Shown here piece by piece: positions 11,035-54,915 of a DNA stretch of 64,000 nt (position 1 is its first letter; every line of letters starts with the position of its first letter). The position numbers and the translations under genes were made by a program. The notes beneath the pieces are model-generated. The model had not been told where the DNA came from. It saw nothing but the letters and a program-made list of their open reading frames with translations, and searched no databases. Source of the DNA: Candidatus Altimarinota bacterium (GTDB taxonomy: Bacteria; Patescibacteriota; Gracilibacteria; CAIRYL01; GCA-016699755); the NCBI GenBank assembly GCA_963664295.1, contig OY760935.1, forward strand, positions 608,001-672,000, written 5' to 3'.

Positions 11035-11037
11035 GCC

Positions 11038-12838: not shown

Positions 12839-12917
12839 CAACTCATTTTCGCAAAAGATTTTAAAATAGTCAAGAATTTTCTTTGAAATTGCAAACTTCT
12901 CATGAGAAAATGAATTC

Positions 12918-13592: not shown

Positions 13593-13606
13593 TTTTATTT
13601 TAAAAA

Positions 13607-14341: not shown

Positions 14342-14368
14342 AATTTTTTATTGCTTAAATAAGCTATA

Positions 14369-14470
14369 TGTCATTGCCCGATTTGATCCACCACGGCGGA
14401 CTTACAATCGGACAATCCATTTGCCATCTAAATTTTCTGCTGGATTATCGGATCAAGCCCGATAATGACA
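14369..14470. repeat. Empty inverted doublet of TGTC-tagged palindromes (REPIN-like)
   Basis: Left arm TGTCATTGCCCGATTTGA[TCCACCACGGCGGAC insert]...TCGGACAATCC; right arm CTGGATTATCGGATCAAGCCCGATAATGACA (14440-14470). Confidence 0.8.
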
Positions 14471-14511
14471 ATAATGAATTATTAACCTTGTTATTAGCGA
14501 GTTTCTTTTTT

Positions 14512-14891: not shown

Positions 14892-14992
14892 AAATAATCA
14901 AAAGTGTGCTAACGAATAACAATGAACAATGATAAATTTTATTCGAAAACTTTAAAAATACGCAAAACATACATAAAATATGTACATAATAA

Positions 14993-15027
14993 ACATAAAA
15001 AGTGTACATTTTGTACACTTTTTATGT
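14993..15027. repeat. Perfect 16-bp inverted repeat (lysA terminator or operator upstream of the nuclease)
   Basis: ACATAAAAAGTGTACA-ttt-TGTACACTTTTTATGT. Confidence 0.7.
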
Positions 15028-15049
15028 AAATTTTGCGCAAAACAACAAT

Positions 15050-16243: not shown

Positions 16244-16255
16244 TTTTTTAATTGA

Positions 16256-20459: not shown

Positions 20460-21083
20460 CTATTGTTTTAATTTCGTACTTGGTTCCACTAAAAGCAAAT
20501 ATTCAAGATTTTTAAGCTCTTCTGTTGTCATACCTATATCCTCAGGTACAACAAAGCCACTATCAAGCCATATTAAAGCTGTTTTTATGATTACCTCAGA
20601 ACTTGTGCCAATATTTTTAATATTTTTTGCAAATTGTTTCAAAGTATCAATAATCATTTGCTCAGTTAATTTTTCAACTTCATTAATATTAAATTCAAAA
20701 TCTTCCTGAATATAACCAGCAGAAAACAAAAAGGTTAAACATGTATTTTTTATTACATTGATAGCAATAATGTTTTCACCTACAGGTTTTTCATTTAACT
20801 CTCTTAATATTTCTAACATTGAACAAGCTTGCGCTCCATAAAACATTTTTTCTTCCTCTGGCGTGAATTGTTGACACAAAGAACAACAGCTATCACACAA
20901 AAAAATATCCAAAACCCTAGAAGCAGCCTCAAATTTTTGCTCTCTTTTGTTCAAAACTTCCTGCAAAAGAAAAGCTATATTAGAAGCGCACTCTTTTTTT
21001 GTTTTTTCAATTATTCGCTCTTTAGGAACCTCTTTTTTTACCGGAGACAAAGCCTTTTTTAGTCTATCTAATGAGCTAAACAT
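20460..21083 (-). CDS. Hypothetical protein, paralog of 21088..21681
   Basis: Aligns by eye with the next gene (MLEILR/MLEAIR, FNINEVE/FDINQVE, WLDSGFV/WFESGFV, IGMTTEEL/LGTTKEEF). Confidence 0.75.
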   Translation of the reverse strand: MFSSLDRLKKALSPVKKEVPKERIIEKTKKECASNIAFLLQEVLNKREQKFEAASRVLDIFLCDSCCSLCQQFTPEEEKMFYGAQACSMLEILRELNEKPVGENIIAINVIKNTCLTFLFSAGYIQEDFEFNINEVEKLTEQMIIDTLKQFAKNIKNIGTSSEVIIKTALIWLDSGFVVPEDIGMTTEELKNLEYLLLVEPSTKLKQ

Positions 21084-21087
21084 ATTA

Positions 21088-21681
21088 TTATGAATTAAAG
21101 CCGTCTATTTCTACTGACAACATTACAAGTTGTTCAAATTCCTCCTTAGTTGTACCTAATTCTTCATAGGTCACAAAACCACTTTCAAACCAAATTTTTA
21201 CTGATTTCATAGTATCCATCGTCATAACTTTACCTTCTTTAAGACTTTTTATAACAACTTGAAGTGATTTATAAATCATTTCTTCAATCCAAATCTCAAC
21301 CTGATTAATATCAAACTGAATATTAATATTGTCAATAACACCATAGCTACGCAAAAGCCTTAAGCAATATCTTTCAAGAGCCTGTACCTCAACATTAAGA
21401 CCACTAGAATCCAACATTCTTATTGCTTCTAGCATCAAAACAGCATCTGACGCACAAAATACAAAAGTTTCCTCTGCAGAAAGCATGCCTAATAAATTTT
21501 CTGAACCATTTAAAAATAAATTATTAATTTTTTCACTTGCTTCAATTTTTTGTCGCCTTTTAAGAATTCTTGTGAGTGCTTCTGCTAACAATTTCGCTTC
21601 TTTTTGTATCGGCTCATGCAATTTACTATCTAGCGATTCTGGTTCACTACCTTGCCCTAATTTTTCTAAATTTTTTACCAT
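21088..21681 (-). CDS. Hypothetical protein, tandem paralog
   Basis: Body similar to 20460..21083; C-terminal tail nearly identical to that of 21688..22653. Confidence 0.75.
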   Translation of the reverse strand: MVKNLEKLGQGSEPESLDSKLHEPIQKEAKLLAEALTRILKRRQKIEASEKINNLFLNGSENLLGMLSAEETFVFCASDAVLMLEAIRMLDSSGLNVEVQALERYCLRLLRSYGVIDNINIQFDINQVEIWIEEMIYKSLQVVIKSLKEGKVMTMDTMKSVKIWFESGFVTYEELGTTKEEFEQLVMLSVEIDGFNS

Positions 21682-21687
21682 AAATTA

Positions 21688-22653
21688 TTAAGAATTAAAA
21701 CTATCAGTTCCTGCTGACAACATTACAAGTTGCCCAAACTCCTCCTCAGTTGTGCCTAATTCTTCATAGGTAGTGTAGCCAAGATCAAGTAAGGTTTTTA
21801 TCTGTTCAAGCACATAATCAGGAACAACATCCTTATTTTGCATGATTTTGATTGCTGTTTTTGCAAGAGCAATTTCCAGATCACCTTCTCCTGCTAATTC
21901 TGCTAATTCATCTCTAGTTATAGAAGATAAATTTTCCAGCCCAAAAACTCCTCTTTGCACTCCCTCCAAACAAAACTGAACAGTTGCATCAATTTGATCA
22001 CTGTATTTATTAGGATCTAAGTCCTTAACTTTTGATAATGCGTAATTTGCAACCATAGCAAAAATTTTTTCAACAATTGGACTAAAAATATCAACATTAT
22101 CAGTATTATAATTAAACCCATTACGCAAAATAGCTACTATATCTTCTCCATTAAGGGACATCTGAATATCTTGCTCCACGCAACTTATAGCCTGCATCAT
22201 AATACCTTCAACATTACTCATAGCATATGCTTGTTTTTCAACAGTTGTATTAACAGCTTTTTGCAATCGAAATTTAAGCTCAACAAGGTTGCCATATCCC
22301 AAATCATGTACCTCAAGATTATGCTGTGCTATCAACTGATTAATGCTATCCATAAGATTAAGAGCGGCTTCCAGGTTGCCATTTGCAACATACAACTCTA
22401 TTTCTTTCATGCTAGCTACAATTATTTGTATTGCTTCTGCTCGTTCTGTGTTATCGGATGATTGCTCAAAATCATCATCTTCTTCAAAAAACTCATCATC
22501 TCCAAGCAAATTATCAACCTCATCTGCAATATCACTTGCAACTTCTTCGGCAATCTTTGTTGTATCAAGTTCTGTTTCTGTGCCGGAACTTTCAGGATTT
22601 ATACCTTCTGTTTCATCTTTAAATTCCAAACCTTTTCTTGTTTTATCAGTCAT
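21688..22653 (-). CDS. Acidic helical hypothetical protein
   Basis: 321-aa ORF ending in TYEELGTTEEEFGQLVMLSAGTDSFNS, shared with its neighbour. Confidence 0.75.
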   Translation of the reverse strand: MTDKTRKGLEFKDETEGINPESSGTETELDTTKIAEEVASDIADEVDNLLGDDEFFEEDDDFEQSSDNTERAEAIQIIVASMKEIELYVANGNLEAALNLMDSINQLIAQHNLEVHDLGYGNLVELKFRLQKAVNTTVEKQAYAMSNVEGIMMQAISCVEQDIQMSLNGEDIVAILRNGFNYNTDNVDIFSPIVEKIFAMVANYALSKVKDLDPNKYSDQIDATVQFCLEGVQRGVFGLENLSSITRDELAELAGEGDLEIALAKTAIKIMQNKDVVPDYVLEQIKTLLDLGYTTYEELGTTEEEFGQLVMLSAGTDSFNS

Positions 22654-35915: not shown

Positions 35916-37622
35916 ATGGCAAACTTTTATGCGATTAACTTATCAAAAATGATTGGCGCAGAAGTATTACTAGAATGTTTAAAAAAAGAAGGCGTAGAAG
36001 TAATTTTCGGTTATCCGGGAGGCGTTGTCTTGCCTTTTTATGATAAATTAAATCAACAAAAAGACATTCGTCATATACTTGTTCGCCATGAACAAGCTGC
36101 TGCCATGGCTGCAGATGGCTATTCTCGTTGTAGTGATAAAACTGGTGTTTGCTTAGCCACTTCCGGCCCTGGAGCAACAAACTTAGTCACTGGTATTGCC
36201 AATGCTTTCTTGGACTCTATTCCTATGGTGGTTATCACTGGTCAAGTATCTAGTTTTGCTATTGGCACTGATGCTTTTCAGGAGGTTGATATCTTTGGAA
36301 TTTGTACGCCAATTACCAAACAATGTTATCAGGTGCTTGATGCCAATGATTTACCAAGAATTATCAAAGAAGCTTTTCATATAGCCAAAAATGGCAGACC
36401 AGGTCCTGTACTTATTGATATTCCTAAAAATATTTTTGAACAAAAAGTAGAAAATTTTAAATATCCAAAAAAAGTTGATTTACCAGGCTATAAGCCAATT
36501 CGCGAAGGCAATCCAGGTCAAATCGAAAAAGCACATAATTTAATCAAAAAATCCAAAAAACCAGTTGTATTAGCTGGTCATGGAATTGTGCTTGGCAATG
36601 CAGAAAAAGAATTCATCGAATTTGCTGAAAAACTCCAAGCTCCAGTTATTTCCACTCTTTTGGCTATGGATATTCTGCCAAAAAGCCATGATCTTAATTT
36701 TGGAATGCTGGGAATGCATGGCGAGCTTGCTGCTAATCTCGCTGTGCACAATAGCGACTTAGTTATTGGTATTGGTCTTCGTTTTGATGATCGCGTACTT
36801 GGACGGGCAGATGAATTTGCCCCTAATGCTAAAGTTATTCATATTGATATTGATCGTGCAGAAATAGGCAAAAACAGAATTGTTGATGTGCCGATTGTTG
36901 GTGACACCAAGCTTGTTATTCCCGAATTGCTCAAAAATTTTGCAACAAAAGATCATTCCAGCTGGTTAAAGCAATTAAAATCATGGAACGATGAAAAAGA
37001 AACAAAATTAAAAGCAAAAATTAGAGAATATACTCATCTTTCTGCCGGCGATGTTATTAAAAAAATCTCAGATATAACCAAAGGAGAAGCAGTTGTTTCT
37101 GCAGATGTAGGACAAAATCAAATGTGGACTGCCTGCAGATATGAATTTAAAACACCAAAAAATCATATATCCTCAGGAGGTCTTGGCACAATGGGCTTTT
37201 CTGTGCCTTCGGCAATGGGTGCTAAAGTTGCCCGCCCAAAAGACACAGTACTTGCTATTTGCGGAGATGGCGGTTTTCAAATGAACATGCAAGAACTTAT
37301 GACTCTTATACAAGATGATATTCAAGTAAAAATTGTTATCTTAAACAACGGCTTTTTAGGAATGGTTCGTCAATGGCAAGAGTTATTTTATAATAAAAAC
37401 TATTCTTATACTCCTTTAATTGGTCCTGATTTTACAAAATTAGCAGAAAGCTTTGGGGTTAAGGCTTATAAAGCTGAGACCATGGAAGAATTAGAAAAAA
37501 ACTTTAAAGCTTGCTTAAAACACAATGGTCCAACTCTTTTAGAAGTTCGTACAGAAGCAGAAGAAAATGTTTTCCCTATGGTTTCTCCTGGTTCAACTTT
37601 AAAAGAAACAAGAATAAATTAA
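35916..37622 (+). CDS. ilvB: Acetolactate synthase large subunit (alternative start 35949)
   Basis: FGYPGG, RHEQAA, TSGPGATN, DAFQE, DVGQNQMW, ThDP motif GDGGFQMN...LNNG.LGMVRQWQ. Confidence 0.97.
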   Translation: MANFYAINLSKMIGAEVLLECLKKEGVEVIFGYPGGVVLPFYDKLNQQKDIRHILVRHEQAAAMAADGYSRCSDKTGVCLATSGPGATNLVTGIANAFLDSIPMVVITGQVSSFAIGTDAFQEVDIFGICTPITKQCYQVLDANDLPRIIKEAFHIAKNGRPGPVLIDIPKNIFEQKVENFKYPKKVDLPGYKPIREGNPGQIEKAHNLIKKSKKPVVLAGHGIVLGNAEKEFIEFAEKLQAPVISTLLAMDILPKSHDLNFGMLGMHGELAANLAVHNSDLVIGIGLRFDDRVLGRADEFAPNAKVIHIDIDRAEIGKNRIVDVPIVGDTKLVIPELLKNFATKDHSSWLKQLKSWNDEKETKLKAKIREYTHLSAGDVIKKISDITKGEAVVSADVGQNQMWTACRYEFKTPKNHISSGGLGTMGFSVPSAMGAKVARPKDTVLAICGDGGFQMNMQELMTLIQDDIQVKIVILNNGFLGMVRQWQELFYNKNYSYTPLIGPDFTKLAESFGVKAYKAETMEELEKNFKACLKHNGPTLLEVRTEAEENVFPMVSPGSTLKETRIN

Positions 37623-37626
37623 AAAT

Positions 37627-38109
37627 ATGAAATCACACATTTTAATATTAAAGGCAATAAATACCTATGGTGTCCTTGGAAAAGTCACCAACCTACTTCG
37701 CAGAAGAAGATTTAATATCGAAGGCTTAACAGCAGGTCATACAGACCAAAAAGGAATATCACACATCACTGTTGCTTTTTCTTCGGAGGATGATTTCAAT
37801 GCAGAACAAGCCAAAAAACAACTTTCCAAAATAGTTGAGGTTATTAGCGTGCGTGATGTACAAGAAAAATCAGTAATCAGAGAAATTGCCTTATTTAAAC
37901 TTCATTGCTCAGAAAAAACCAAGGCTCCAATTTTTGATGCAACAAAATTATTCGAAGGAAAAATTGTAGATAGTAGTAAAAAAACAATAATAGTAGAAAT
38001 AACCGGCACACCAAAAAGAATAGACCAATTCCATGAATTAGTAAGAAATTACGGCGTAAAAGAATTCATAAGATCCAGCGTAATTGCTGTCAAATCTGAT
38101 ATAAATTAA
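37627..38109 (+). CDS. ilvN: Acetolactate synthase small (regulatory) subunit
   Basis: GVLGKVTNLLRRRRFNIEGL, KQLSKIVEV, REIAL; lies between ilvB and ilvC. Confidence 0.9.
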   Translation: MKSHILILKAINTYGVLGKVTNLLRRRRFNIEGLTAGHTDQKGISHITVAFSSEDDFNAEQAKKQLSKIVEVISVRDVQEKSVIREIALFKLHCSEKTKAPIFDATKLFEGKIVDSSKKTIIVEITGTPKRIDQFHELVRNYGVKEFIRSSVIAVKSDIN

Positions 38110-38127
38110 AAATTTAACCATAAAAAA

Positions 38128-39117
38128 ATGTCAAAAATAATCCATGATGCAGATGTAAGCACAAATGTAATAGAAGGAAAAACTATTGCAGTAATCGGCT
38201 ATGGCGCTCAAGGAAGGGCACAAGCAAGAATGATGCACGAATCTGGACTTAATGTTGTTGTTGGTTTGCGTGAAAACGGCCCAAGCTGGCAACAAGCCCA
38301 GGAAGACGGTTTAAAAACAAATCCAATTAGTGAAGCAGTAAAAACAGCGGATATTATTCACATTCTCATCCCAGACGAACATCAGCAAGATGTATATGAA
38401 CAAGAAATCGCACCAAATCTAAAAGAAGACGCTACTCTCAGCTTTTCGCATGGATTTAATATTGTATACAAAAGAATTACTCCACCAGAAGGAGTTGATG
38501 TGATTATGGTTGCACCAAAATGCCCAGGAACAGAAGAATACAAAAGATATTCAGAAGGTTTTGGCGTTCCTGCGCTAGTAGCTGTGGGTCAAGATGCTTC
38601 AGGCCAAGCGCTTAACAAAGCCCTTGAAATGGCAAAAAAAATGTACTTCACAAAAGCTGGCGTCATGCAATGCACTTTTGAAGAAGAAACTTATGAGGAT
38701 CTTTTTGGTGAACAGGCTGTGCTTTGCGGTGGCTTGGCGCAACTTATTAAATATGGCTTTGAAACATTAGTTGAAGCTGGTTATCCACCAGAGTTTGCCT
38801 ATTTTGAGTGCTTACATGAAATGAAGCTTATTGTTGATCTTGTTTACGAAGGAGGTTTTTCAAAAATGAATGAAGTGGTCTCAAATACAGCAGAATATGG
38901 CGGTCACACTAGAGGATCTCGTGTTATTGGACCAGAAGTAAAAGAACGCATGAAAGAAGTCTTAAAAGAAGTTGAAAATGGCACTTTTGCTAAAGAATGG
39001 ATGCATGAAGCACGCGAAAACAAAATGCAAAAACTTTTTGAATATCGCAAAAAAGAAAGCGAACATCCGATTGAGCAAGTGGGTAAAAAAATTAGATCTT
39101 TGTTTGAAATGGATTAA
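38128..39117 (+). CDS. ilvC: Ketol-acid reductoisomerase
   Basis: IGYGAQGRAQA, FSHGF, DLFGEQAVLCGG, AYFECLHEMKLIVDL, SNTAEYG. Confidence 0.97.
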   Translation: MSKIIHDADVSTNVIEGKTIAVIGYGAQGRAQARMMHESGLNVVVGLRENGPSWQQAQEDGLKTNPISEAVKTADIIHILIPDEHQQDVYEQEIAPNLKEDATLSFSHGFNIVYKRITPPEGVDVIMVAPKCPGTEEYKRYSEGFGVPALVAVGQDASGQALNKALEMAKKMYFTKAGVMQCTFEEETYEDLFGEQAVLCGGLAQLIKYGFETLVEAGYPPEFAYFECLHEMKLIVDLVYEGGFSKMNEVVSNTAEYGGHTRGSRVIGPEVKERMKEVLKEVENGTFAKEWMHEARENKMQKLFEYRKKESEHPIEQVGKKIRSLFEMD

Positions 39118-39947
39118 GTTGCTTCCGTTGGAGCACTACCAGGAAAAAGAAAATTACTTACTGGTGCATTGTTTCCGCTAGCGCCTCCACCAGCATTAAT
39201 AATCTTGCCAGCAATTCCACTATTTGCCACTCTTGATCCCCAATTTACATAAGAATCAGCAACAGAAGTGCCAATTTTGAGTATATCTGTGCTGGTATCT
39301 TTTGTGAGCTCACCAAATCTACCCCAGCGCTCTTTGACCCAGTTCATAGTGCGATCTGTTTTGGCTTGCTCTGCTACTTTTAATCCTGGTAAACGACCAA
39401 GGGTAAAATTCCACATCTTATTTAAACCAAGTGCATTGCGAGTACCATTAACAACATCAGCCACAGCACCAAAAGCAACTCCTGGAGCTTCGATAGCGCT
39501 TAATGCTGTTGATTTTACCCCATCCAAAGCCAAATCTTTTGCGCTCATGGTAGCATTAAAGGCATTTTTTGTTGCCATCAAAGGAGCGCCAATAGCAACA
39601 TCTTGAATACCACCAACGCCAATAGCCAAACCCGTTTCCGCTGTATCTTTACTAACACCTAAAACCGCCCCTAAGCCTTTACGAGTACCGCTAATAATAC
39701 CATTAAAAGGTGTTTTTCCTAATTGCCATAAGCCATTCGCCAAGCCCAAAGTTGCATCAACAGCAAGACCAGCAGGCAACATAGCAATTGCCAAACCTCT
39801 AGTTCCTGCGTCTAATATTATATTACCATGGGCTGAAGTTAAGAAATCTTTTGCAACACTAGTGACTGGCATTTTTGATAAAGCACCTCCCTCATTAAAA
39901 ATTTTTTGATATTTTGAGCCAGTAAATTGAAATGGTATTTGATGCAT
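39114..39947 (-). CDS. Gly/Ala-rich hypothetical protein
   Basis: 277 aa of amphipathic/hydrophobic small-residue helices; co-oriented with the two giant genes upstream. Confidence 0.7.
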   Translation of the reverse strand: MHQIPFQFTGSKYQKIFNEGGALSKMPVTSVAKDFLTSAHGNIILDAGTRGLAIAMLPAGLAVDATLGLANGLWQLGKTPFNGIISGTRKGLGAVLGVSKDTAETGLAIGVGGIQDVAIGAPLMATKNAFNATMSAKDLALDGVKSTALSAIEAPGVAFGAVADVVNGTRNALGLNKMWNFTLGRLPGLKVAEQAKTDRTMNWVKERWGRFGELTKDTSTDILKIGTSVADSYVNWGSRVANSGIAGKIINAGGGASGNNAPVSNFLFPGSAPTEAT

Positions 39948-39982
39948 TTTATTTTAATTAAATTTTTTATTTATAAAGTTGT

Positions 39983-42900
39983 TTAGTATTCTGACAGTTT
40001 ACTTCCTAATTTTTCCTTTACCTCTTGTTGGTCCCTGAGAGTATTATTTAATGATAAACGGTTCAAGTTGCCTTTAGATAATTTTTCTGCGACTTCTGAA
40101 CTTATGGAAGTAAGTCCGTATAAATGCAAATGACCCAAGTTGCCTTTAGCTAATTTTTCTGCGACTTCTGGAGTTATGGAAGTAAGTCCTTTTAAATACA
40201 AATAATTAAAGTTGCCATTAGCTAATTTTTCTGCGACATCTGGAGTTATGGAAGTAAGTCTGTCTAAAGACAAAAAAGTCAAGTTGTTATTAGCTAATTT
40301 TTCTGCGACTTCTGGAGTTATGGAAGTAAGTCCGTCTAAATGCAAAGAAGCCGAATTGTTATTAGCTAATTTTTCTGCGACTTCTGGAGTTATGGAAGTA
40401 AGTCCGTCTAAAAACAAAGAAGTCAAGTTGTTATTAGCTAATTTTTCTGCGACTTCTGGAGTTATGGAAGTAAGTCCGTCTAAATACAAACGACCCAAGT
40501 TGCCATTAGCTAATTTTTCTGCGACATCTGGAGTTATGGAAGTAAGTCCGTTTAAATACAAATAATTAAAGTTGCCATTAGCTAATTTTTCTGCGACATC
40601 TGGAGTTATGGAAGTAAGTCCGTCTAAAGACAAAAAAGTCAAGTTGTTATTAGCTAATTTTTCTGCAACTTCTGGAGTTATTGAAGTAAGTCTGTTTAAA
40701 TGCAAAGAAGTCAAGTTGTTATTAGCTAATTTTTCTGCAACTTCTGGAGCTATGGAAGTCAGTCCGCTTAAATGCAAAGAAGTCAAGTTGTTATTAGCTA
40801 ATTTTTCTGCAACTTCTGGAGTTATTGAAGTAAGTCCGTTTAAATACAAAGAAGTCGAATTGCCATTAGCTAATTTTTCTGCAACTTCTGGAGTTATGGA
40901 AGTAAGTCTGTTTAAATACAAATAATTCAAGTTGCCTTTAGCTAATTTTTCTGCAACTTCTGGAGTTATTGAAGTAAGTCCGTTTAAATACAAAGAAGTC
41001 GAATTGCCATTAGCTAATTTTTCTGCAACTTCTGGAGTTAGGCTTTTTAAAGCTTGAATATCACTATATGAAAAATTACCCTCTAATATTTTTTGATATA
41101 ATTGTAATTGTTCTTGTTCATCTTCACTAGAAGCTTCTTCTGCTTCCGCAGGCATTTCATCTCCTATATCATCAAGTAAATCATCTATTGCTTCATTTTC
41201 TGTATCTGATAATCCTGTTAAAACATCACCTACTTCTTCTTCCGTGATCTCAGCATCTTCTTCTAGGCCTAGTTCTAAATCCTCTTCGTTTGCGCTTTCT
41301 GGTGCATCATCAATTTGCGATGCATCAATCACCTCTTCAGAAGCAGAATCATCAACCTCTGACCATTCTGCATCTACCACCTCATCAGAAGGGCTTGTTT
41401 GTAATGATGACTGCTGTTGCTGTGAATCTGCCTCTTCTTGAGCTGGTTCTGAACCTAATTCAGAACCTAAGCCTAGATCGTCAGCATCTTCTTCTGCCAT
41501 TGCCTGTATATCTAGCTCTGCTTTTTTTTCGTTTGCGCTTTCTGGTGCATCATCAATTTGCGGTGCATCAATCACCTCTTCAGAAGCAGAATCATCAACC
41601 TCTGACCATTCTGCATCTACCACCTCATCAGAAGGGCTTGTTTGTAATGATGACTGCTGTTGCTGTGAATCTGCCTCTTCTTGAGCTGGTTCTGAACCTA
41701 ATTCAGAACCTAAGCCTAGATCGTCAGCATCTTCTTCTGATTCTTGTTCTGCTACTTCTGCTTCTGTTTCTAGGTCTAAACCTAGATCGTCAGTGTCTTG
41801 TTCTGATTCTTGTTCTGCTACTTCTGCTTCTGTTTCTAGGTCTAAGCCTAGATCGTCAGCATCTTCTTCTGATTCTTGTTCTGCTACTTCTGCTTTTTTG
41901 TTGATCACAGCAGTCTCTGTTGCATTATCTAGGCCTATTATTTCACCTTCAAATTTAGCCAAAGCTAAAATAGCTGCATCATCACTTACTGATAAGCCTG
42001 AAAACATTATTGATCCAACTGTAGATTGTGCCAACTCTTTTATTGCGTTAGGAGTTATGACTTGAAGGTCATTCAAAATTAAAACATATCCATTATACTT
42101 TGCTAGTTCTTTTGCTTCTTCAGACTCTAATTTAGCCAAGCCCTCAATTTTCAAAGTGTAACCATTAAAACTTGCTAGCGCAATAGCTATCTCAGGACTC
42201 AATTGATTAAAACAATTTACAAAACAAAGTTCACTTACAACAGCCTTGCATAACTCCTTCATTACAAGTGGGCTAATATGTGTAAGACTTTTAAACTGAA
42301 GTCGATTTTTTATAAAACCTCCTAATATTTTTGCTTCATCAAGTTCTAACCTACGAAGTTTATCAAAATCAATATTTCTAAAACCTGAGAATTTAATCTT
42401 GTGAGCAATATCTACAGTAAGCTCTTCTATGTTTTCTATGTCATCTTTATTAAAATCACCGCTTAATATTCTTTGCTTTATTTGTTCTTGTTCATCTAAA
42501 CTTTCATTTGCTTCTTGATCTACACTATTCAGCAAGTTATCTAAATTATCTTGACTTAATGCTCCCTCTTCATCGAGTTCTCTCGACGCTCCTATATCTG
42601 TATCTAAGTCTAAGCTTGGTGCTAGTTCTTGTGGGCTTGGTTCTGACTCTGGGGCAGACTGTGGCTGTGACTGTGGCTGTGGTTCTGGCTCTGGGGCAGA
42701 CTGTGGCTGTTGCTGTGGTTCTGGCTCTGAGGCAGACTGTGGCTGTTGCTGTGGTTCTGGCTCTGGGGCAGACTGTGGCTGTTGCTGTGGTTCTGATCTT
42801 GTTGCATTAGCTCTTCTTTGATTTGATACATCCTCTACTTCTACAAAATTAGCCACTTCTTCAAAAAATCCAAGTGTTTTCTTTGGCAAATCTCCACCAG

Positions 42901-45412
42901 GATCATTATCCTTCCCTCTTCCAAACTGAAACCATTCACCCAAAGTCTCTATTATTGGACCTAAAACTTTTCCCGTTCCAGATGCAATATATTTAGCGCC
43001 AATATTAATTGGGCTAATACCTTTTTTCAAGCTTTTGTCTACTTTCTTTATTTTCTCTGCAATTTTATTATTAATATTAGCTGCATAAGGATTACCTTGT
43101 TTTTTGCTAAAAGGATAATGTTTGTCAATAGCAGCTCTTCTAGTTTTTTCTCCAATTTTTTCCAATAATTCAACTCTCTTGCCCTCTGCTTCTTCTCCAT
43201 AAATTTTTTCCAAAATATCATCAAGATTATCAGCATTAACTTGCTCTTTAAATTTCTCAAATACAGCTTTTTTGCCATAATGCTCAATTTTTTTTCTTTT
43301 CGCAATTGGCAATTCATTAACCATTCCCTCAAGATTGGTTAAAATCGTATCTTCTTCAAGACCTAATGCGTCTTGCATTATTGTTAAAATACTTTCTGAG
43401 TCTAATTTTTTAAACTCAACTTTGGACGGAATATCCATTTCTTCTGGTTTAACCGGCTTGCCATCGCTCGTTTTGCCAGCATAAAAAAGTTTCTTAAAAT
43501 TAAGTTCATTGTTGCCTAAATTGCTTATAGCAATTTGATACAATAATTCTTTTATTTCTGGTAAATCCAAGCTTTCTTTCAGTAGCGCAAGCGCATAAAA
43601 ATGCTCCTTGTAATCAATTGCTTCGCTCAATTTAGATAATTTTTCAGGAGTTTCAAAAATATCTTCCATTAAATTGCTCATAAAAGCATCACCACTTATA
43701 AGTTCTTTGCTGATTTTTTTATCATTCATCCAAAAAGGCTTCCCATTCGGTTGCCTTGCTTCAAACTTGCTATAGTCTTGTCTACCTACTCCTTCTGCTT
43801 CCAAGTCATCAGCAGCTTCCATAAGCATCACAAACGCCTCTGATTTTGTATAATTTCTTCTCCAAAGCTTAGTAATATTTACAAAATCTGCCACCTCATA
43901 AGCTCCTCGACCAAAATTAGCGAAAATACTATCTCTAGAATTTTCAATTATATTATCAATAGCGCCTGTGCCACTAAAAACCTCTTTGTCGCTTTTTACA
44001 GAGGTAATATTTCTTACAAGAGAATTTAAAACACCCTTTCTAAGATCATCCCTGGTTCCTGTTCTTAAATCACCAAAATACGAAGCATTACGACCTTGTA
44101 CTCCTATTTTTTTAAGCATATTTGGTAAATTTCCATTACCAACACCTGGCAAATTTCTAGTCAAGTGATTTACTGCCATTTTTCTGTCTTCCTCGTCTTC
44201 GTTACTAAGAGAAGCTCTAACTATCCAGTCAATAATCACATCTAATCTTCTTTGGATTTCTATTGGTGGATATTTTTCTAAATTATTTCTGGTTCTATTT
44301 ACTGCTTCTTGTTGTTGCAGATTTGTTTCTTCTTCGTCCCCTTGTGATAATCTCTCTTTTTTTGATGTTAATTTTTCTATTGTTTCAGCTTTGTCAGCAT
44401 TTGCAAGACCGAGCTCATTTGGAAACAGTTTTTTAATTTCTGCTTTTTCTTGATCACTAAATTTTTTAGAAGCAAGTATGCGAACTGCATCATTTCCCTC
44501 AAAACTCGCTAACTTATCTGTTAATTTTGTAAGCTTATTTGCTTCTTTTAATTTTTCTTTAATTTGCTTTTTGTCACCTTTTACTTGCGGAATACTTCCA
44601 AATCTTTCAGTTTCAAACAAAGTATCTAATTCTTTTTTATTAAAAAAACTATTATTTGTAGAACCTCTTCTGTGTGCACCTCTTAATGCATTTGTTGTTG
44701 CAAAAACACCAGCAAATGCCCATGGTCCTAGAGCATAAGCAGGAAGCGCTGCCACAACAGCACCAAGAGCCAAACCTCCCACAGCAGTTGTTATAGCGTT
44801 ATCAGCTGCTATCTTCCAAGGCTCTTTAATCTTTGCTTGACGATATCCTTCATAAGAATTATATACAAGCGGTGTTGCCATAAGCACAGACTTACTAAAA
44901 ACAACAGAACCAAGACCTTTGAAAAAAGCAGCAAAAGCTGACATACCCTCTTTGCTTGCTTCATTGATTACATCTTGCACCCCTGTTTCACCTAATGTTT
45001 CCTGAAGATATTGTTCCATTTCTGGAGGTAATTCAAACTCATCAGCTTGCTCTTGAGCCAAGGCCGAAGAAGACAAAGCAGTTGCTGTTGTCACTGTTGC
45101 CAGTCCAGTTGCACCTCCATATTTAATAACCTTGCTAATTTTTTGCGCCAAACTAGTTTCTTCTGGTTCCAAAACTGGATTTTTATTTTTATCATCACCC
45201 AATACATCAGCCATTTTTTCCCTATTATCAGCCATAGGAGTCACAACTCCCTCAGCTAAAGTAAAAGTTTTTTCAAGCTCTGCTTTTGTAATTTGCCCTG
45301 CTTGTTCTATTTGTTCTGGTGTCAGATTTTTTGCATCCAACCCAGCTCCCTCTTGAGCTTCTTGTAAAGGATCTGCTGTATTTTTGCCATCACTTCTGTT
45401 TATTGATGTCAT
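39983..45412 (-). CDS. Giant mosaic protein: N-terminal hydrophobic segments, helical core, P/Q/E linkers, two LRR domains
   Basis: Uninterrupted 1809-aa ORF with C-terminal 24-aa LRR repeats (LxxLxLxGLTSITPEVAEKLA). Confidence 0.85.
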   Translation of the reverse strand: MTSINRSDGKNTADPLQEAQEGAGLDAKNLTPEQIEQAGQITKAELEKTFTLAEGVVTPMADNREKMADVLGDDKNKNPVLEPEETSLAQKISKVIKYGGATGLATVTTATALSSSALAQEQADEFELPPEMEQYLQETLGETGVQDVINEASKEGMSAFAAFFKGLGSVVFSKSVLMATPLVYNSYEGYRQAKIKEPWKIAADNAITTAVGGLALGAVVAALPAYALGPWAFAGVFATTNALRGAHRRGSTNNSFFNKKELDTLFETERFGSIPQVKGDKKQIKEKLKEANKLTKLTDKLASFEGNDAVRILASKKFSDQEKAEIKKLFPNELGLANADKAETIEKLTSKKERLSQGDEEETNLQQQEAVNRTRNNLEKYPPIEIQRRLDVIIDWIVRASLSNEDEEDRKMAVNHLTRNLPGVGNGNLPNMLKKIGVQGRNASYFGDLRTGTRDDLRKGVLNSLVRNITSVKSDKEVFSGTGAIDNIIENSRDSIFANFGRGAYEVADFVNITKLWRRNYTKSEAFVMLMEAADDLEAEGVGRQDYSKFEARQPNGKPFWMNDKKISKELISGDAFMSNLMEDIFETPEKLSKLSEAIDYKEHFYALALLKESLDLPEIKELLYQIAISNLGNNELNFKKLFYAGKTSDGKPVKPEEMDIPSKVEFKKLDSESILTIMQDALGLEEDTILTNLEGMVNELPIAKRKKIEHYGKKAVFEKFKEQVNADNLDDILEKIYGEEAEGKRVELLEKIGEKTRRAAIDKHYPFSKKQGNPYAANINNKIAEKIKKVDKSLKKGISPINIGAKYIASGTGKVLGPIIETLGEWFQFGRGKDNDPGGDLPKKTLGFFEEVANFVEVEDVSNQRRANATRSEPQQQPQSAPEPEPQQQPQSASEPEPQQQPQSAPEPEPQPQSQPQSAPESEPSPQELAPSLDLDTDIGASRELDEEGALSQDNLDNLLNSVDQEANESLDEQEQIKQRILSGDFNKDDIENIEELTVDIAHKIKFSGFRNIDFDKLRRLELDEAKILGGFIKNRLQFKSLTHISPLVMKELCKAVVSELCFVNCFNQLSPEIAIALASFNGYTLKIEGLAKLESEEAKELAKYNGYVLILNDLQVITPNAIKELAQSTVGSIMFSGLSVSDDAAILALAKFEGEIIGLDNATETAVINKKAEVAEQESEEDADDLGLDLETEAEVAEQESEQDTDDLGLDLETEAEVAEQESEEDADDLGLGSELGSEPAQEEADSQQQQSSLQTSPSDEVVDAEWSEVDDSASEEVIDAPQIDDAPESANEKKAELDIQAMAEEDADDLGLGSELGSEPAQEEADSQQQQSSLQTSPSDEVVDAEWSEVDDSASEEVIDASQIDDAPESANEEDLELGLEEDAEITEEEVGDVLTGLSDTENEAIDDLLDDIGDEMPAEAEEASSEDEQEQLQLYQKILEGNFSYSDIQALKSLTPEVAEKLANGNSTSLYLNGLTSITPEVAEKLAKGNLNYLYLNRLTSITPEVAEKLANGNSTSLYLNGLTSITPEVAEKLANNNLTSLHLSGLTSIAPEVAEKLANNNLTSLHLNRLTSITPEVAEKLANNNLTFLSLDGLTSITPDVAEKLANGNFNYLYLNGLTSITPDVAEKLANGNLGRLYLDGLTSITPEVAEKLANNNLTSLFLDGLTSITPEVAEKLANNNSASLHLDGLTSITPEVAEKLANNNLTFLSLDRLTSITPDVAEKLANGNFNYLYLKGLTSITPEVAEKLAKGNLGHLHLYGLTSISSEVAEKLSKGNLNRLSLNNTLRDQQEVKEKLGSKLSEY
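40040..41038 (-). repeat. 72-bp coding tandem repeat, 13 full + 1 degenerate LRR units
   Basis: Framework GCTAATTTTTCTGC(A/G)AC(T/A)TCTGGAG recurs every 72 bp. Confidence 0.97.
41285..41896 (-). repeat. Acidic linker repeats: ~212-bp near-perfect duplication (41285-41496 / 41528-41739) plus three 66-bp units
   Basis: DADDLGLGSELGSEPAQEEADSQQQQ...APESANE occurs twice; AEVAEQESE(E/Q)D(A/T)DDLGL occurs three times. Confidence 0.92.
42636..42797 (-). repeat. 36-bp coding tandem repeat (QQQPQSAPEPEP x4-5)
   Basis: GGCAGACTGTGGCTGTTGCTGTGGTTCTGGCTCTG recurs. Confidence 0.92.
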
Positions 45413-45465
45413 TTTTTGTTTTTAATTTTTGTTTTTATTGCTATTTTTTGTTTTTATTTACTAGG

Positions 45466-48400
45466 TTACCTCGAGAGAATATTGGCAAGCACGAATTCTA
45501 ACCAATTTTTCATGCCACTTTTTGTGTATTGACCGCCCACACCTTGAGATGGATTTTGCAATATAAGATTTTTAAATATTACTTTAAATTTTTCTGAATT
45601 ATCCTGCATCAATATTTGTCCTTTCTTCGGATCAACAGATTTAAATGATTTACCCTGAACTAAATTTGCATGGGCTTTTTTGAAAACCTCATCTCCCAAT
45701 TTATCAACCATTTCCACTGTCCATGGAATTTTTTTGTTTCCATTTTTTTCTAAAGACTTTTGAATTTGATCAAAACTGATTATTACTTCTGGCAATCTTG
45801 ATCCTTTTTTAATATTAAAATCATTCAATTTAGCACCTTCGAGCAATGTATTTCCATCTTTAAAAAATTTATCAACATTATCACCAACAAATGGAATAAG
45901 GGAACCAGTATCACCAGCAAAAGAATTTAGCCTTTGAAAAAGATCAACACCTTTTCTTTCCCCAGCAGTAAGTTTATCAGCCCCATAGTCAAGCAACTTG
46001 TCCACACCAAGAAGATTAACCAAAAACAATCTACATATTTCACCTTGTGTAATAGAATCTTTTGCAAGATCAGTATCTTCTCCAACTGCTTTTCGAATCT
46101 CTGTAATCAAAGTATTAAAACTCTTCGCAGTAGAGCTATTTGCAGTAGTAGGATCAAAAAGATATTCCAATGCCAAATCCAAATCACCTGGACGAACAAA
46201 TCCATAAGCCTCTTGCACTTGTTTATGAATTCCTGCATCTTTTACCGCTTGTTTTAGGGCATCTGCGCTACTAATTGTCACCTCTTTTTCAGGATTCTTC
46301 ATGCTACTCAACATATTGACATAGCCCCCAACCACATTGAATGAAAAATGCCTAAGCAAAGTCAATGCTTCTGGCAATTTTTCTGCACTAAATTCCAAAG
46401 CCCAACCAGCAGTCTCAAAAGGCAACTTAGCTGTTTTAAGAATAAGCCCGTCTGTTCCAGGCGTACCCATAAGCAATCTATAGGTCTTGCTTCCTTGTGC
46501 TATTTCTATGTATTCTTTTCCTTTTTCTATTCCTGTATCAACTATGTTCCAGCCCTTGTTTGCCATATCTTTCACAAATGGTATTGCATCTTCTTTGAAA
46601 AATTTTTTCAAAAGAGCAATAACCACAGGCAATTTTTCTTTTCCACTTCTAGCAACATCTTTAAGATAAGGCACTGCTGTAGCCCAAGCTTCGCCAAATT
46701 TTTGTGTGACAAAATCGGTAATATCTCTGTTTTTCTCAAGACTACGATTAAAGTCTTGTTTGTCAATTGCTAATGCCAACAAATTACCAAAAGTAACCTT
46801 TTCTTTTGCCTTTCTGTTAAACAAATTACTATTGCTCATCATTTTTTCTGCTACTTTTATACCCTCTTCAACACTAGGTTTTTTGTATTTTGACCTCTCC
46901 ATAGAAAGATCTTTAAAATACAACTCCAAAAGACCAAGAGAAATCATAGCAAGATCAGCCTGCTTACTTTCTGTTGTTGAGCCTGGCAAATCTTCAATAA
47001 AAATCTTCAATTCATCAGGCATGCCATTCATTATAACCTCACCCGCATTATCCACTTGAATTTCTGATGCTCTTGTTTTTTTATGCCAATCCAAAAGCTT
47101 GTGCATTTCAATATCATTCATTGCCTTCATCAATCTTGGACTTTGTTTTGATTCCAATGCTTTCTGTTGCCATGCTGTTGGATTTAGTTCTTCTTTTTTC
47201 CAATCAAGTTTATCTAGATAAATCTGAAAAATTGCTCCTTCTTGTCCTTTTTCCTCACTAAACAAGCCAATTTCCTCAAAAATATCATAGCCATTATATT
47301 CTTTAATAAACTCACGCAACAAAACTCCACCAAAAATATACTTACCATATTCTCCTAATTTACCACCACCAAAAGCAACTTTGTAAATTCCATACAAAAT
47401 TCCAACTGCAGTAGTCATTTTCAATGGGTCGCCAGAAGTCACCATATCCATCCAAGTATCAAAACCTCTTTCCATAAAATCCGGATCCAATCCGCTTTGT
47501 TCTGCATTATAATAATCAGAAAGAGTTTTTTGATAATTATCCATTCTGCTTAATAATTCACCCTGCAAAAGCTTCAAAAGCTCAGTATTTTCAATCAAAG
47601 CACCACTAGCCTGGCTTGTATTTTTTGCTTCTGGGTTAATTTTTCTTTGCATTACATCATTATGCATAACCAAAAACTTCTCTAGCATACTTGAGTTCAC
47701 CTCCTCTTCATTAAACTTTCCTTTTTCATCAAACCATAAATGAGGATCAATAATGTTTGCCTGACCATTGCCCTCCTGCCCAAAATAAAGACGGATAAAT
47801 TTTTCTCTTGTTGCGCGCAAATCCACTCCTGTTTTTTTCTCAAAAGCCTCTAGTTGCAAATTTCTTAATCTTTCTGTTAATTTTTTTGTTTCAATTTTCT
47901 TAAACTTTGCCAAAGCTTCACTTAATCCCGCTAAGCCAGAGCTAGTAGGCTCACTACTGCTAAGGCCTTTTGCAACTTGACTATATAACAAGTTTGAATT
48001 AGTGTTTAAACTTGTAATCATATTGCCAAGCTCAACATAGCCATAAAAACAAGCAAACAACAAAAACTCCTTCACTTTTGGATCAGCAGGCTCTGGAATA
48101 CCTGAATCCAGCCATAATTTTCTTTCAATATCATCAAATCTCTTCCTTAACTCTTTGCGCTCAAGTGCTTTTTCAAAAATATTCCAATAGCTACCACCCT
48201 TATCAAGAGGTTTTGACTCTGGAGATCTTCCTTGAAATGTCTTTTGCCATTTTAGATTTTCTTTGAGCCCATCTATTTCTTCTTTTAGTTGATCAACTTC
48301 TCTTTTGTCGAGTTCATATTCAAGAACTGATTTTAAATACTCCTTTCTTAATTTATCCAATTGAGTTGCATCAGGTGATGTCTTATTTTTTTCTTTATTA

Positions 48401-49713
48401 TAAGCGTCTTTTGCTTTTGCCATTTCTTGTCCTTTTGCTTTTAGTTGAGCTTCTTTTGGACTTAATTCTTCTTCTTTTTCCTGAATTTGAGTTTCTAATG
48501 TAGAGATATCCACTAGGTCAAAAATAGGATTAGAATGATAAGCTTCCAGTCTCCCATAAAATTCATCCTCTTTTTTAATTATTTCTTGAGCCAATGCTTT
48601 ATTTGGATTTGCTCTATATTTTCTTCGCAAGGTTCTTAGGTCAATTTCTTGTTGGCTTAATCTAGCATTTACCAAAGCAAAATTGTTGTCCTCCGAAACA
48701 CGATCCTCACACAATCCATCAAAAAGACGCATATCACACTGCATCATTCTTCTTTTGTATCTCTCCGCCACATCAGCATTGGTTTCTTTGGCACTAGGGT
48801 ACACAATAGCAATAAAACTACCTGAGTCTATTTTTCTCGCTTTTTCACCAGCTGGCAAAGAGGCATAATATTCATAAATTGCTTTATTAACAAGCATTCT
48901 TACCTCCCATTCTCGTAGCTTAGATAGTTTTCTTTTTTCTTTCTTTAGCCTTTCCTCTAAGCCACTCTTCTCTGTTCCACTTGCAGTTGAAACTTGCTCT
49001 TTTAATTTTTCCACCTCTATTTGCTTCAAAATAACAGCTCCAAGTACATTTTTTGCTGCCAAAACAGCAGCTTGATATTCTCTTTGTAATCTTTCTAGCT
49101 CTTTTTGCTTACTCACATTTTCTCTAGCTTTTGATAATAATCTATCTAATTTTTCTTTAATTGCTATTAATTCTTTTTTAGTTTTTTCTATGTTTTCATT
49201 TTTTATTAAATCAGGGAGCACTAAGTTTACTTTTTCGTATATATTTAACAAAAATGAAGATATCAGATTTGTCTTATTACTAAGATTAAACTTTACATCT
49301 GTATTGCTATCCAACAATTTATTAATGATGTTTAATTCTGCTTGCGTAAACCCAAAATCTTGAAAACTTGCCTTTTCTTGTGCAAGTTCAAGTTTTAATT
49401 TTGTAATCTCTTCTTCTTTTCCGCTTGCTTTCAAGTTAAAATATTCTTTTATTTGCTCATTTTCTTCCACCATGCTCTCATCCCAAACAGTAATCTTACC
49501 AGCAAGTTGCAAATATTCATCCGGATCACTATTTCTAATGTCATCAAGACTTTCTAAAAACCCATCAAAAATTTCATTACTATCAAATCTTTCTGCACCA
49601 AAACTAGGTCTTTCAGGTGTTCCCAAAAAAACTGGCAAATTGCACAAAAAAAACTTTTTCAACTTGTTATTTTCAGGTTTCTGCCAATGAAAATTACTAT
49701 TTTCAAATTTCAA
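45466..49713 (-). CDS. Giant coiled-coil hypothetical protein with a central hydrophobic hairpin (TTG start)
   Basis: 1415-aa ORF with E/K-rich heptads and a TM-like stretch TTAVGILYGIYKVAFGGG...IFGGVLL. Confidence 0.8.
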   Translation of the reverse strand: MKFENSNFHWQKPENNKLKKFFLCNLPVFLGTPERPSFGAERFDSNEIFDGFLESLDDIRNSDPDEYLQLAGKITVWDESMVEENEQIKEYFNLKASGKEEEITKLKLELAQEKASFQDFGFTQAELNIINKLLDSNTDVKFNLSNKTNLISSFLLNIYEKVNLVLPDLIKNENIEKTKKELIAIKEKLDRLLSKARENVSKQKELERLQREYQAAVLAAKNVLGAVILKQIEVEKLKEQVSTASGTEKSGLEERLKKEKRKLSKLREWEVRMLVNKAIYEYYASLPAGEKARKIDSGSFIAIVYPSAKETNADVAERYKRRMMQCDMRLFDGLCEDRVSEDNNFALVNARLSQQEIDLRTLRRKYRANPNKALAQEIIKKEDEFYGRLEAYHSNPIFDLVDISTLETQIQEKEEELSPKEAQLKAKGQEMAKAKDAYNKEKNKTSPDATQLDKLRKEYLKSVLEYELDKREVDQLKEEIDGLKENLKWQKTFQGRSPESKPLDKGGSYWNIFEKALERKELRKRFDDIERKLWLDSGIPEPADPKVKEFLLFACFYGYVELGNMITSLNTNSNLLYSQVAKGLSSSEPTSSGLAGLSEALAKFKKIETKKLTERLRNLQLEAFEKKTGVDLRATREKFIRLYFGQEGNGQANIIDPHLWFDEKGKFNEEEVNSSMLEKFLVMHNDVMQRKINPEAKNTSQASGALIENTELLKLLQGELLSRMDNYQKTLSDYYNAEQSGLDPDFMERGFDTWMDMVTSGDPLKMTTAVGILYGIYKVAFGGGKLGEYGKYIFGGVLLREFIKEYNGYDIFEEIGLFSEEKGQEGAIFQIYLDKLDWKKEELNPTAWQQKALESKQSPRLMKAMNDIEMHKLLDWHKKTRASEIQVDNAGEVIMNGMPDELKIFIEDLPGSTTESKQADLAMISLGLLELYFKDLSMERSKYKKPSVEEGIKVAEKMMSNSNLFNRKAKEKVTFGNLLALAIDKQDFNRSLEKNRDITDFVTQKFGEAWATAVPYLKDVARSGKEKLPVVIALLKKFFKEDAIPFVKDMANKGWNIVDTGIEKGKEYIEIAQGSKTYRLLMGTPGTDGLILKTAKLPFETAGWALEFSAEKLPEALTLLRHFSFNVVGGYVNMLSSMKNPEKEVTISSADALKQAVKDAGIHKQVQEAYGFVRPGDLDLALEYLFDPTTANSSTAKSFNTLITEIRKAVGEDTDLAKDSITQGEICRLFLVNLLGVDKLLDYGADKLTAGERKGVDLFQRLNSFAGDTGSLIPFVGDNVDKFFKDGNTLLEGAKLNDFNIKKGSRLPEVIISFDQIQKSLEKNGNKKIPWTVEMVDKLGDEVFKKAHANLVQGKSFKSVDPKKGQILMQDNSEKFKVIFKNLILQNPSQGVGGQYTKSGMKNWLEFVLANILSR

Positions 49714-49837: not shown

Positions 49838-50614
49838 CGTCATTGCGAATCTAAAAAAAAGGATCGTCATTGTGGGCTTTTTGGGTTGTCATTGTGGACT
49901 TTTTGGATTGTCATTGCGGACTTTTTGGGGTGTCATTGCGAGGAACCTGCCTCTTTTTTTGTCATTATCGGACTTGATCCGATAATCCAGAGAATCATGT
50001 CATTGCGGACTTGATCCGCAATCTCCTTGTCCATGTGCCCAACTCCTATCTTGTCATTGCGGGCTGTTTAGGGTGGTGTCATTGCGGACTTGATCCGCAA
50101 TCTCGGGAGGCAGGAGGTCTCATTGTGAACATAAAACACACCCTTACTGTCATTCTGAGCGGAATGAAATGGAGCGAAGAATCTCCTTGTCCATGCGCTC
50201 AAGTCCTGCCTTAGGTAATTCAACAGTAATGACAACGGGAGATCCTTCGCTTCGCCTAAAGGCTCGCTCAGGATGACATACTATTTCTGTCATTCTGAGC
50301 GAAAAACACTCCCTTTTTGTCATTCTGAGCGGAATGAAATGGAGCGAAGAATCTCCTTGTCCATGCGCTCAAAATCTATCTTGTCATTGCGGACTTTTTG
50401 GGGTGTCATTGCGAGGAACCTGCCTCTTTTTTTGTCATTATCGGACTTGATCCGATAATCCAGAGAATCATGTCATTGCGGACTTGATCCGCAATCTCCT
50501 TGTCCATGCGCTCAAGTCCTGCCTTAGGTAATTCAACAGTAATGACAACGGGAGATCCTTCGCTTCGCCTAAAGGCTCGCTCAGGATGACAGAGTAAAGG
50601 GGCTCAGAATGACA
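49838..50614. repeat. Composite TGTC-tagged palindromic array 3 (largest)
   Basis: More than 15 GTCATT/ATGAC arms of several stem variants; internal direct duplications 49909-50035=50382-50508 and 50180-50278=50493-50591. Confidence 0.95.
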
Positions 50615-50696
50615 AAAAAGAACTTAAAACAAAAAAATAAAAACAATTAAAAAAAATTCATTGCCCTATATAAAGCCAAATAATCAACATTAAAAA

Positions 50697-54436: not shown

Positions 54437-54463
54437 AATATCACCTTTTTGTTGCTATTGTTT

Positions 54464-54915
54464 TTTTGAGGGTGTCATTGTGGGCTTTTTGAGGGTGTCA
54501 TTGCGGACTTTTTGAGGATGTCATTACGGACTTTTTGAGGATGTCATTACGGACTTGATCCACAATCTCGGCAGGTGTCATTCTGAGCGCAAAACACACC
54601 CTTGCTGTCATTCTGAGCGAAATGAAATGGAGCGAAGAATCTCCTTGTCCATTTGCTCAAGTCCTGCCTTAGGTAATTCAATAGTAATGACTACAGGAGA
54701 TCCTGAATCGAGTTCAGGATGACATACTATTTTTGTCATTCTGAGCGTAATGAAATGGAGCGAAGAATCTCCTTGTCCATTTGCTCAAGTCCTGCCTTAG
54801 GTAATTCAACAGTAATGACACAGGAGATCCTTCGCTTCGCCTAAAGGCTCGCTCAGGATGACAGAAAAAGTAAGAGAGAGGGAGAATGACAGAAGAAAGG
54901 GGCTCAAGATAACAG
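54464..54915. repeat. Composite TGTC-tagged palindromic array 4
   Basis: Four 23-bp tandem half-arms (TTTTTGAGG(G/A)TGTCATT(G/A)(T/C)GG(G/A)C), then two REPIN-like doublets and trailing ATGAC remnants. Confidence 0.93.

Follow-up and report, generated by a model that had tools for sequence, protein, structure and literature searches.

Within the 64,000-nucleotide (nt) stretch of Candidatus Altimarinota bacterium DNA considered here (contig OY760935.1, positions 608,001 to 672,000; hereafter the window), the minus-strand open reading frame (ORF) of the 1,809-amino-acid (aa) protein P0001 carries at its 3' end an array of leucine-rich repeats (LRRs). The reading that we favour, with a probability of about two in three, is that this array is a recent 13-unit LRR expansion, in which duplication and conversion have homogenised the scaffold and positive selection has acted on the binding face, the whole being carried as a head on long linkers.

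Tandem Repeats Finder (TRF) resolves the array into 13.6 copies of a 72-bp period with an 89% match, 0 indels and a score of 1431. The 13 full units differ pairwise by 0–13 nt, and the divergent 14th differs from the other 13 at 24–33 nt. A preliminary description of this DNA, made from the letters alone, had pointed to recurring units and to a hypervariable face, and both are found again: unit 1 (U1) is identical to U3 (0 differences), U6–7 recur as U11–12 at a distance of 360 bp (U6/U11 differ at 2 nt and U7/U12 at 1 nt, i.e., 3/144 nt), and all 12 distinct face motifs that it listed are present in the array. Unit positions 11, 13–15, 17, 19, and 20 vary as it stated, together with slight variation at positions 1, 3, and 10. 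Synonymous variation is limited to codons 4, 12, 21, and 23 of the unit, while most face variation falls on positions 1–2 of NNY codons and the face is composed mostly of aromatic, polar, or acidic residues.

For the analysis of selection, the face was defined as the five x positions of LxxLxLxx (14, 15, 17, 19, and 20), and minimal allele steps were counted per codon. The face codons show 15 nonsynonymous (N) and 0 synonymous (S) steps, and the other 19 codons 7 N and 4 S. These counts give a face omega (ratio of the N to the S rate) of 5.9 against all synonymous sites of the unit (binomial p = 5e-4), a value that ranges from 5.1 to 8.2 across 12 transition/AT-bias settings (p <= 0.0013) and reaches 7.3–11.2 for positions 15, 17, and 19 alone; omega is 1.8 for the whole unit and 0.7 for its non-face part. 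Eight further young tandem repeats, in frame and elsewhere in the genome, served as the control and together give 22.5 N and 8.5 S (omega ~0.7); this set omits three older arrays (0.48–0.87), a 255-bp array (0.53), three single-unit rows, and the LRR paralogue at 384.6 kb, which carries a young 72-bp duplication with 5 N and 0 S differences. The array is likely under positive selection on its binding face. Moreover, the face alleles at 14, 15, 17, 19, and 20 are connected by single-nucleotide steps and the synonymous sites in the variable block are clean; thus, the variants arose after homogenisation and are not old retained blocks.

The genome, a single contig of 1,215,430 bp that is 100% complete, contains 31 near-perfect tandem repeats of at least 45 bp (25.5 per Mb), compared with 3 and 1 in two complete relatives, each sampled over 400 kb (4 in 0.8 Mb; p = 2.5e-4), a density about five times that in the relatives' samples. 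Nine of the 31 lie in ORFs, all of them in frame. Among the 22 intergenic ones, 8 have a motif resembling repetitive extragenic palindromic (REP) elements and several others start in tRNA-like sequence, a content for which the idea of a purely random genome-wide duplication phenotype has been toned down. MutS, MutL, and NucS families were not found in the genome and RecA is present; MutS_V is missing in 8/8 genomes of this family and present in 12/12 of the sister family. This repeat density, together with three further tandem repeats within P0001 besides the array, speaks for a neutral by-product, in which a mismatch-repair-deficient, repeat-prone genome would have amplified one unit, with the buried scaffold under purifying selection and the exposed face drifting free of any selected ligand. 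The strongly relaxed purifying selection reported for young repeats in general (Persi et al., PMC5120217) and the absence of the P0001 tail from orthologues agree with such an origin. Drift, however, limits omega to near 1, whereas the face stands at 5–8 with no synonymous allele and the other young repeats of the same genome give ~0.7, so that we regard this alternative as rather unlikely.

An AlphaFold2 (AF2) model computed from a 68-sequence alignment (pLDDT 94.7, pTM 0.90) renders the array as a beta-alpha LRR solenoid with short parallel strands and the helices outside, each repeat having a helix at unit positions 2–9 and a strand at 15–17. The LRR fold read from the letters is thereby corroborated, as is the placement of the variable residues on or beside the strand, at the x positions of LxxLxLxx. 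In LRR geometry the Leu residues of the strand motif (here Leu16 and Leu18) face the core (PMC2946307) and, therefore, positions 15, 17, and 19 are expected to lie along the concave face, flanked by 14 and 20. Among the matches listed, Foldseek returned LRR proteins only. The VIA structural search ranks the LRR of RipG4, a GALA protein, first (PDB 9j7j, Z 26.1, rmsd 5.1, 338 aligned), followed by FBXL2 (6o60, Z 23.5) and ribonuclease inhibitor (Z 22.4), and Legionella LRR proteins are also among the closest solved folds. By sequence, the best PDB matches are designed LRRs and repebodies, with E about 1e-10.

Regarding the repeat class, the pattern is LxxLxLxxLxxI, with Leu at 16 and 18 in 13/13 units and Leu or Phe at 13 in 10/13. 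The Asn/Cys ladder site is occupied by Leu in 13/13 units, outside the Asn, Thr, Ser, or Cys of the typical, ribonuclease inhibitor (RI)-like, SDS22, plant-specific (PS), and bacterial classes as defined in PMC2946307. The unit shares with cysteine-containing (CC) and GALA LRRs its 24-aa beta-alpha build (24–26 aa) and an I-T-P-E turn followed by a helix, close to their ITD/Igd, with Leu instead of their ladder Cys, Asn, or Thr; the F-box of GALA effectors is absent from a Pfam scan of P0001 at E <= 0.1. The Treponema-type class (TpLRR, LxxLxLxxxLxxIgxxAF), which also lacks the Asn, was rejected, since two and not three residues precede the next Leu, IgxxAF is missing, and a helix is present. 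For a TpLRR-like structure, PMC4021314 mentions a motif without the Asn, LxxLxLxxLxxL.

It is improbable, in our judgement, that P0001 is an exported effector or an intracellular adaptor and not a surface adhesin, with a face evolving against a host-cell or phage protein inside the cell as in GALA or Legionella LegL proteins. Its closest solved folds (RipG4, FBXL2, and Legionella LRR proteins) would suit such a role, but this likeness is generic to beta-alpha LRRs; likewise, fusions with kinases, TPR, ankyrin, and FGE-sulfatase domains occur in the repeat family, but neither an F-box nor any other effector domain was found in P0001 by the Pfam scan. The lack of a classical signal peptide also favours this alternative; what the orthologues have conserved is a hydrophobic segment pair, which speaks against it.

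The preliminary description had further proposed that the array is shuffled by recombination, with a logic similar to that of variable lymphocyte receptors (VLRs) or transcription activator-like effectors (TALEs). Intragenic recombination is detected, as 52/136 informative site pairs fail the four-gamete test and the units are mosaic, a result that fits conversion or unequal crossover between units. The likeness to VLRs breaks down, since no silent 72-bp donors are found in the complete genome: blastn with the array gives only outside matches of 17–35 bp, the best of them 20–35 bp, and, thus, there are no silent cassettes and no template repeat. Searches of the complete genome for donors or a template by blastn and tblastn returned only diverged protein-level paralogues, and the paralogous LRR genes have no DNA-level tract in common with the array. 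Nothing supports TALE-like coded recognition either, the TALE repeat (33–34 aa, helical, two adjacent variable residues) having been discarded for a 24-aa beta-alpha unit with 5–7 variable positions. Variation at positions 1–2 of NNY codons is a trait of the targets of diversity-generating retroelements (DGRs). However, the reverse-transcriptase family RVT_1 was found in 0/1 in this complete genome (the control was positive in 3/14 genomes), and variation is not adenine-specific, as an A allele is lacking at 7/21 variable sites and 18 adenines do not vary. Programmed diversification, i.e., VLR-like cassette conversion or DGR-like mutagenesis making an array repertoire within the population, to which mosaic units and DGR-like codon variation could point, is already largely refuted by the lack of donor, template, RVT_1, and shared paralogue tracts, by the adenine pattern, and by array unitigs that all match the reference, and appears highly improbable. 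Ordinary duplication and conversion would suffice to account for the scaffold, because there are no donors or reverse transcriptase, no mismatch-repair families, and the genome is rich in repeats.

In the favoured reading of a recent expansion with a selected face, tandem duplication through slippage or unequal crossover would expand the units, and gene conversion between units that are 85–92% identical would homogenise the scaffold, both processes being assisted by RecA and by the absence of MutS, MutL, and NucS. Residues newly arisen on the face (Tyr, His, Phe, Ser, Asn, Asp, and Arg) would be retained by positive selection, and conversion may then distribute them among units. The concave face of the solenoid would bind a fast-changing partner, probably a protein of a host or of a phage. 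The N-terminal hydrophobic pair would serve P0001 as an anchor, and its long linkers, acidic or Pro-rich, would keep the LRR head at a distance from the cell, where it could contact a surface protein of a host or prey, or a phage.

Several points weigh against this proposal. The selection test is carried by only 4 synonymous alleles, and p rises to 0.005–0.055 when the test is confined to the face codons, while recurrent face mutation could mimic part of the four-gamete signal. The direction of the side chains is derived from strand position and LRR geometry, not from model coordinates, and for GALA LRRs, which have the closest fold solved, it is the convex side on which positive selection was reported (PMC2244805). 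Surface location is argued from hydropathy only, there is no classical N-terminal signal peptide, and the AF2 model of the N-terminal region is uninformative (pLDDT 37). Finally, no variant units occur among the unitigs of the single sample available, although rare variants are dropped from contigs.

Among public contigs, only one sample holds the locus, in three runs (X1, X2, and X3) available as contigs. In two runs, the unitigs on the array match at >=99% (25/25 and 16/16), and the tract common to U1 and U3 is covered about twice as deeply as the unique unitig next to it (50 against 25 in X1, 24 against 12 in X2); therefore, the array is not an assembly artefact at the level of the unit. 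No unitig spans the array, so that the order and number of units rest on the assembly. Uncovered bins amount to 2/30 in X1 and 7/30 in X3, from which contig-only runs permit no inference.

The array is the last of several parts of P0001, which is itself the middle gene of a cluster of three.

Table 1. Features of P0001 and of the three-gene cluster (window positions).
Feature	Position	Strand	Basis
P0001, 1,809-aa protein, middle gene of a three-gene cluster conserved in the bacterial order	39983..45412	minus	no Pfam/NCBIfam family above cut-off
Divergent 14th repeat and C-terminal helices, likely C-cap	39986..40102	minus	unit comparison, AF2 model
Young LRR array (aa 1459-1770; 13 units, each of 72 bp / 24 aa)	40103..41038	minus	TRF, in-frame cutting, AF2 model
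Short helix ahead of unit 1, likely N-cap	41039..41095	minus	AF2 model
Very acidic linker, 37% D/E, 1% K/R	41096..41900	minus	composition, TRF
Degenerate and older LRR block (aa about 975-1170), of the array's type	41900..42490	minus	sequence search
Pro/Gln-rich linker, 36-bp x4.2 repeat; start of lineage-specific tail	42638..42795	minus	TRF, orthologue comparison
Gly/Ala-rich hydrophobic segment pair (aa 158-263), common to syntenic orthologues	44624..44941	minus	alignment, hydropathy
Upstream 1,415-aa cluster gene	45466..49713	minus	homologue search
Downstream 277-aa Gly/Ala-rich cluster gene	39114..39947	minus	synteny

The acidic linker carries in-frame duplications (243-bp x1.9, 99%; 66-bp x2.8, 93%), and segments similar to the 'QIL.g.f' ahead of unit 1 also precede LRR blocks of paralogues. 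The hydrophobic pair, with Kyte–Doolittle (KD) values of 1.36 and 1.91, is a possible membrane anchor. A search with the N-terminal 871 aa of P0001 turned up no homologue at E <= 0.01 in 7,986 scored candidates (479–1,525 aa) and a single weak match in 40 relatives (G015, E 5.6e-6), which was confirmed by synteny. The middle-gene orthologues in the four loci fetched (G003, G004, G010, and G015) measure 388–865 aa, share the hydrophobic N-terminal segment at 17–23% identity, and contain no LRR; thus, the tail formed by the Pro/Gln linker, the old LRR block, the acidic linker, and the young array is a lineage-specific addition. Homologues of the upstream gene occur in 5 other genomes of 150 searched, all of the same order, and in none of 136 other genomes of the class. 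For the downstream gene, 4 relatives have genes of 254–326 aa and similar make-up at the same position, linked by synteny (phmmer at E <= 0.01 gave no link). Compared across the window cluster (39114-49713, minus) and the relatives' loci L142, L149, L150, and L151, the three proteins measure 1,100–1,640, 388–1,809, and 254–326 aa, respectively. The cluster keeps its gene order within the bacterial order and did not turn up in the other genomes of the class that were searched; it is a candidate lineage-specific envelope or export module. By eye, several of its proteins have a short E/Q-x-R/K-I/L-V/F-F-like motif within their first 30 residues (L142:7228-8208 and 10874-15796; L149:6178-6942; L150:1465-2340; L151:7274-8179; window 39114-39947), possibly a lineage-specific targeting signal.

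The pattern of fixed scaffold and variable face is not peculiar to this gene: a large family repeats it. Of 7,994 candidates scored in a sequence search, 399 were matches, some of them in the fusions mentioned above. At thresholds of E <= 1e-3, 1e-10, and 1e-30, a profile search of 1.84 billion representatives retrieved 7,059, 4,932, and 2,282 clusters, respectively, the weak end of which may take in other LRR classes. A DNA motif scan of GTDB genomes gave at least 131 loci. Among the matches listed, most belong to Planctomycetota/Verrucomicrobiota and a few to Peribacteria/Patescibacteria, Elusimicrobia, Chitinophagaceae, and others. The repeat period in the family is 23–24 aa. In 3,112 units of 257 proteins, which are biased toward the query because they were found with this array, L/V/I make up 94% of the ladder residues, N/C/T/S are confined to 21 units, and Gly comes before the ladder in 72%. 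No Pfam or NCBIfam model describes the repeat; LRR_8 matched only 5/68 aligned members, and the Pfam/NCBIfam names TAF, HTH_3, RHH_8, Vip3A_N, ComX, RhrA, and others were rejected as spurious short matches summed over repeats. No published definition was found in a search that covered mostly open-access main text, so that a description may exist; the repeat class looks uncurated.

From this family 119 arrays were extracted, of which 3 from the own genome were left out. In 114 of the 116 others, which were chosen by scaffold motif and are not independent (some overlap or come from the same genome), the proportion of nonsynonymous differences (pN) is higher in the face than in the scaffold, and 9 young arrays (scaffold synonymous proportion, pS, <0.25) have the same fixed scaffold and variable face. 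The array of P0001 is the youngest example among those extracted, because its synonymous divergence is the lowest of all, and is not unique. Independent young arrays are found at L132 (a Luteolibacter metagenome-assembled genome, MAG), L060 and L082 (Planctomycete MAGs), and L031 (a Peribacteria MAG); L132 has three adjacent ORFs with 9–13 detected units each and is a better candidate for inter-gene shuffling. The family is patchy in the class of the window (10/151 genomes; 0/6 others in its own family). Within this genome, the same LRR type is present in the degenerate second block of P0001 and, outside it, in no fewer than four further genes, with genes of this type located at 72.5–74.3 kb, 270 kb, 329–333 kb, 341.8–342.7 kb, and 382–385 kb.

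Some further features of the window and the genome were observed. A scan for promoters and terminators did no better than chance (39 against 33 +/- 5.4). Clusters of REP-like palindromic units starting with GTCATT lie between genes at 49840-50620 and 54463-54556, and three 9–10-mer words of these units occur 45–76 times genome-wide. A 355-aa protein (9756-10823, minus), which has no Pfam match, has a hydrophobic segment at the N-terminus, and its 'ala.F.G..L.l' repeats are LRR-like but degenerate. Three consecutive ORFs (20460-22653, minus) have similar 'TYEELGTTxEEFxQL' tails, and the near-identical C-terminus of the last two suggests a small paralogous family. The genes at 35916-39117 (plus) presumably encode large and small acetolactate synthase subunits together with ketol-acid reductoisomerase, and those at 13607-17131 (minus) we take, by their appearance, to be dapB/lysA/dapA-like; such amino-acid biosynthesis is unusual in a reduced, Candidate Phyla Radiation (CPR)-type genome. 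TGA read-through was noted in a genome of the same class and, along with the size of the genome and its gene content, suggests a Patescibacteria lineage of the class Gracilibacteria.

For host recognition by CPR-type bacteria, no genomic clue to the proteins that take part is better than a positively selected surface module, and the array constitutes a concrete bait for pull-downs. Moreover, the repeat class is worth defining, given its thousands of clusters and repeated young arrays with fixed scaffold and variable face, and could be used as a natural repebody-like scaffold. A broader conjecture, which we hold to be quite doubtful, is that Leu-ladder LRRs, a very large and uncurated class, are a natural, cysteine-free single-gene binder library of the Planctomycetota–Verrucomicrobiota–Chlamydiota (PVC) group and CPR, and that in this episymbiont-type lineage the array is a host-recognition head placed on a conserved three-gene envelope or export module and retuned inside populations through intragenic shuffling of its units in a mismatch-repair-free genome, as a host-range contingency locus.

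The evolutionary mechanism is already known and, therefore, the finding extends a known kind and opens no new one. Accelerated evolution has been described among young repeats in general (PMC5120217), and the array fits this description. PMC6851277 presents the opposite case, a hypervariable gene of Gracilibacteria whose PTD repeat varies synonymously, and the available part of PMC11452946 mentions no LRRs. The array resembles lamprey VLRs and TALEs in its modular repeats with a variable face, and DGR targets in its NNY-type codon variation, but it has neither the cassettes, Cys caps, and Asn ladder of VLRs, nor the 33–34-aa two-helix repeat with a di-residue code of TALEs, nor the reverse transcriptase and template repeat of DGRs. 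The comparison with VLRs and TALEs had already been drawn for hypervariable LRRs by Altae-Tran et al. (2020, PMC10392669), whose surface LRRs of Flavobacterium psychrophilum and LRRs of Dictyostelium purpureum share with the array a conserved scaffold, one hypervariable face, and recombination without mobile-element machinery. In F. psychrophilum, these LRRs comprise up to 19 tandem genes and gene fragments with a signal peptide, a type IX secretion system (T9SS) tail, and strain-level variation, whereas here there is one array in one gene, with no fragments and a different repeat class. The LGR proteins of Protochlamydia (Eugster et al. 2007, PMC2216083) are also large, with C-terminal LRR arrays and adjacent whole-unit duplication, for which RecA has been proposed, in a host-dependent bacterium, but they have 28-residue RI-like repeats and form six paralogues with homologous bodies. 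With GALA/CC-LRR proteins (RipG4 and FBXL2; Kajava et al. 2008, PMC2244805; PMC2946307), the array has in common the 24-residue beta-alpha repeat, LxxLxL, and an IT-x-E turn before the helix matching ITD/Igd, and it differs from them in the Leu replacing the Asn/Cys/Thr ladder residue, in the absence of an F-box, and in selection on the strand face instead of the convex side reported for GALA. The WD, ANK, and TPR repeats of fungal NLR proteins (het-e family; Dyrka et al. 2014, PMC4986451) combine high repeat identity and concerted evolution with few positively selected binding-face positions. The array has the same homogenised scaffold and positively selected binding-face codons, unlike them in an LRR and not a WD, ANK, or TPR repeat, with no NACHT or NB-ARC domain and with no exchange detected between paralogous genes.

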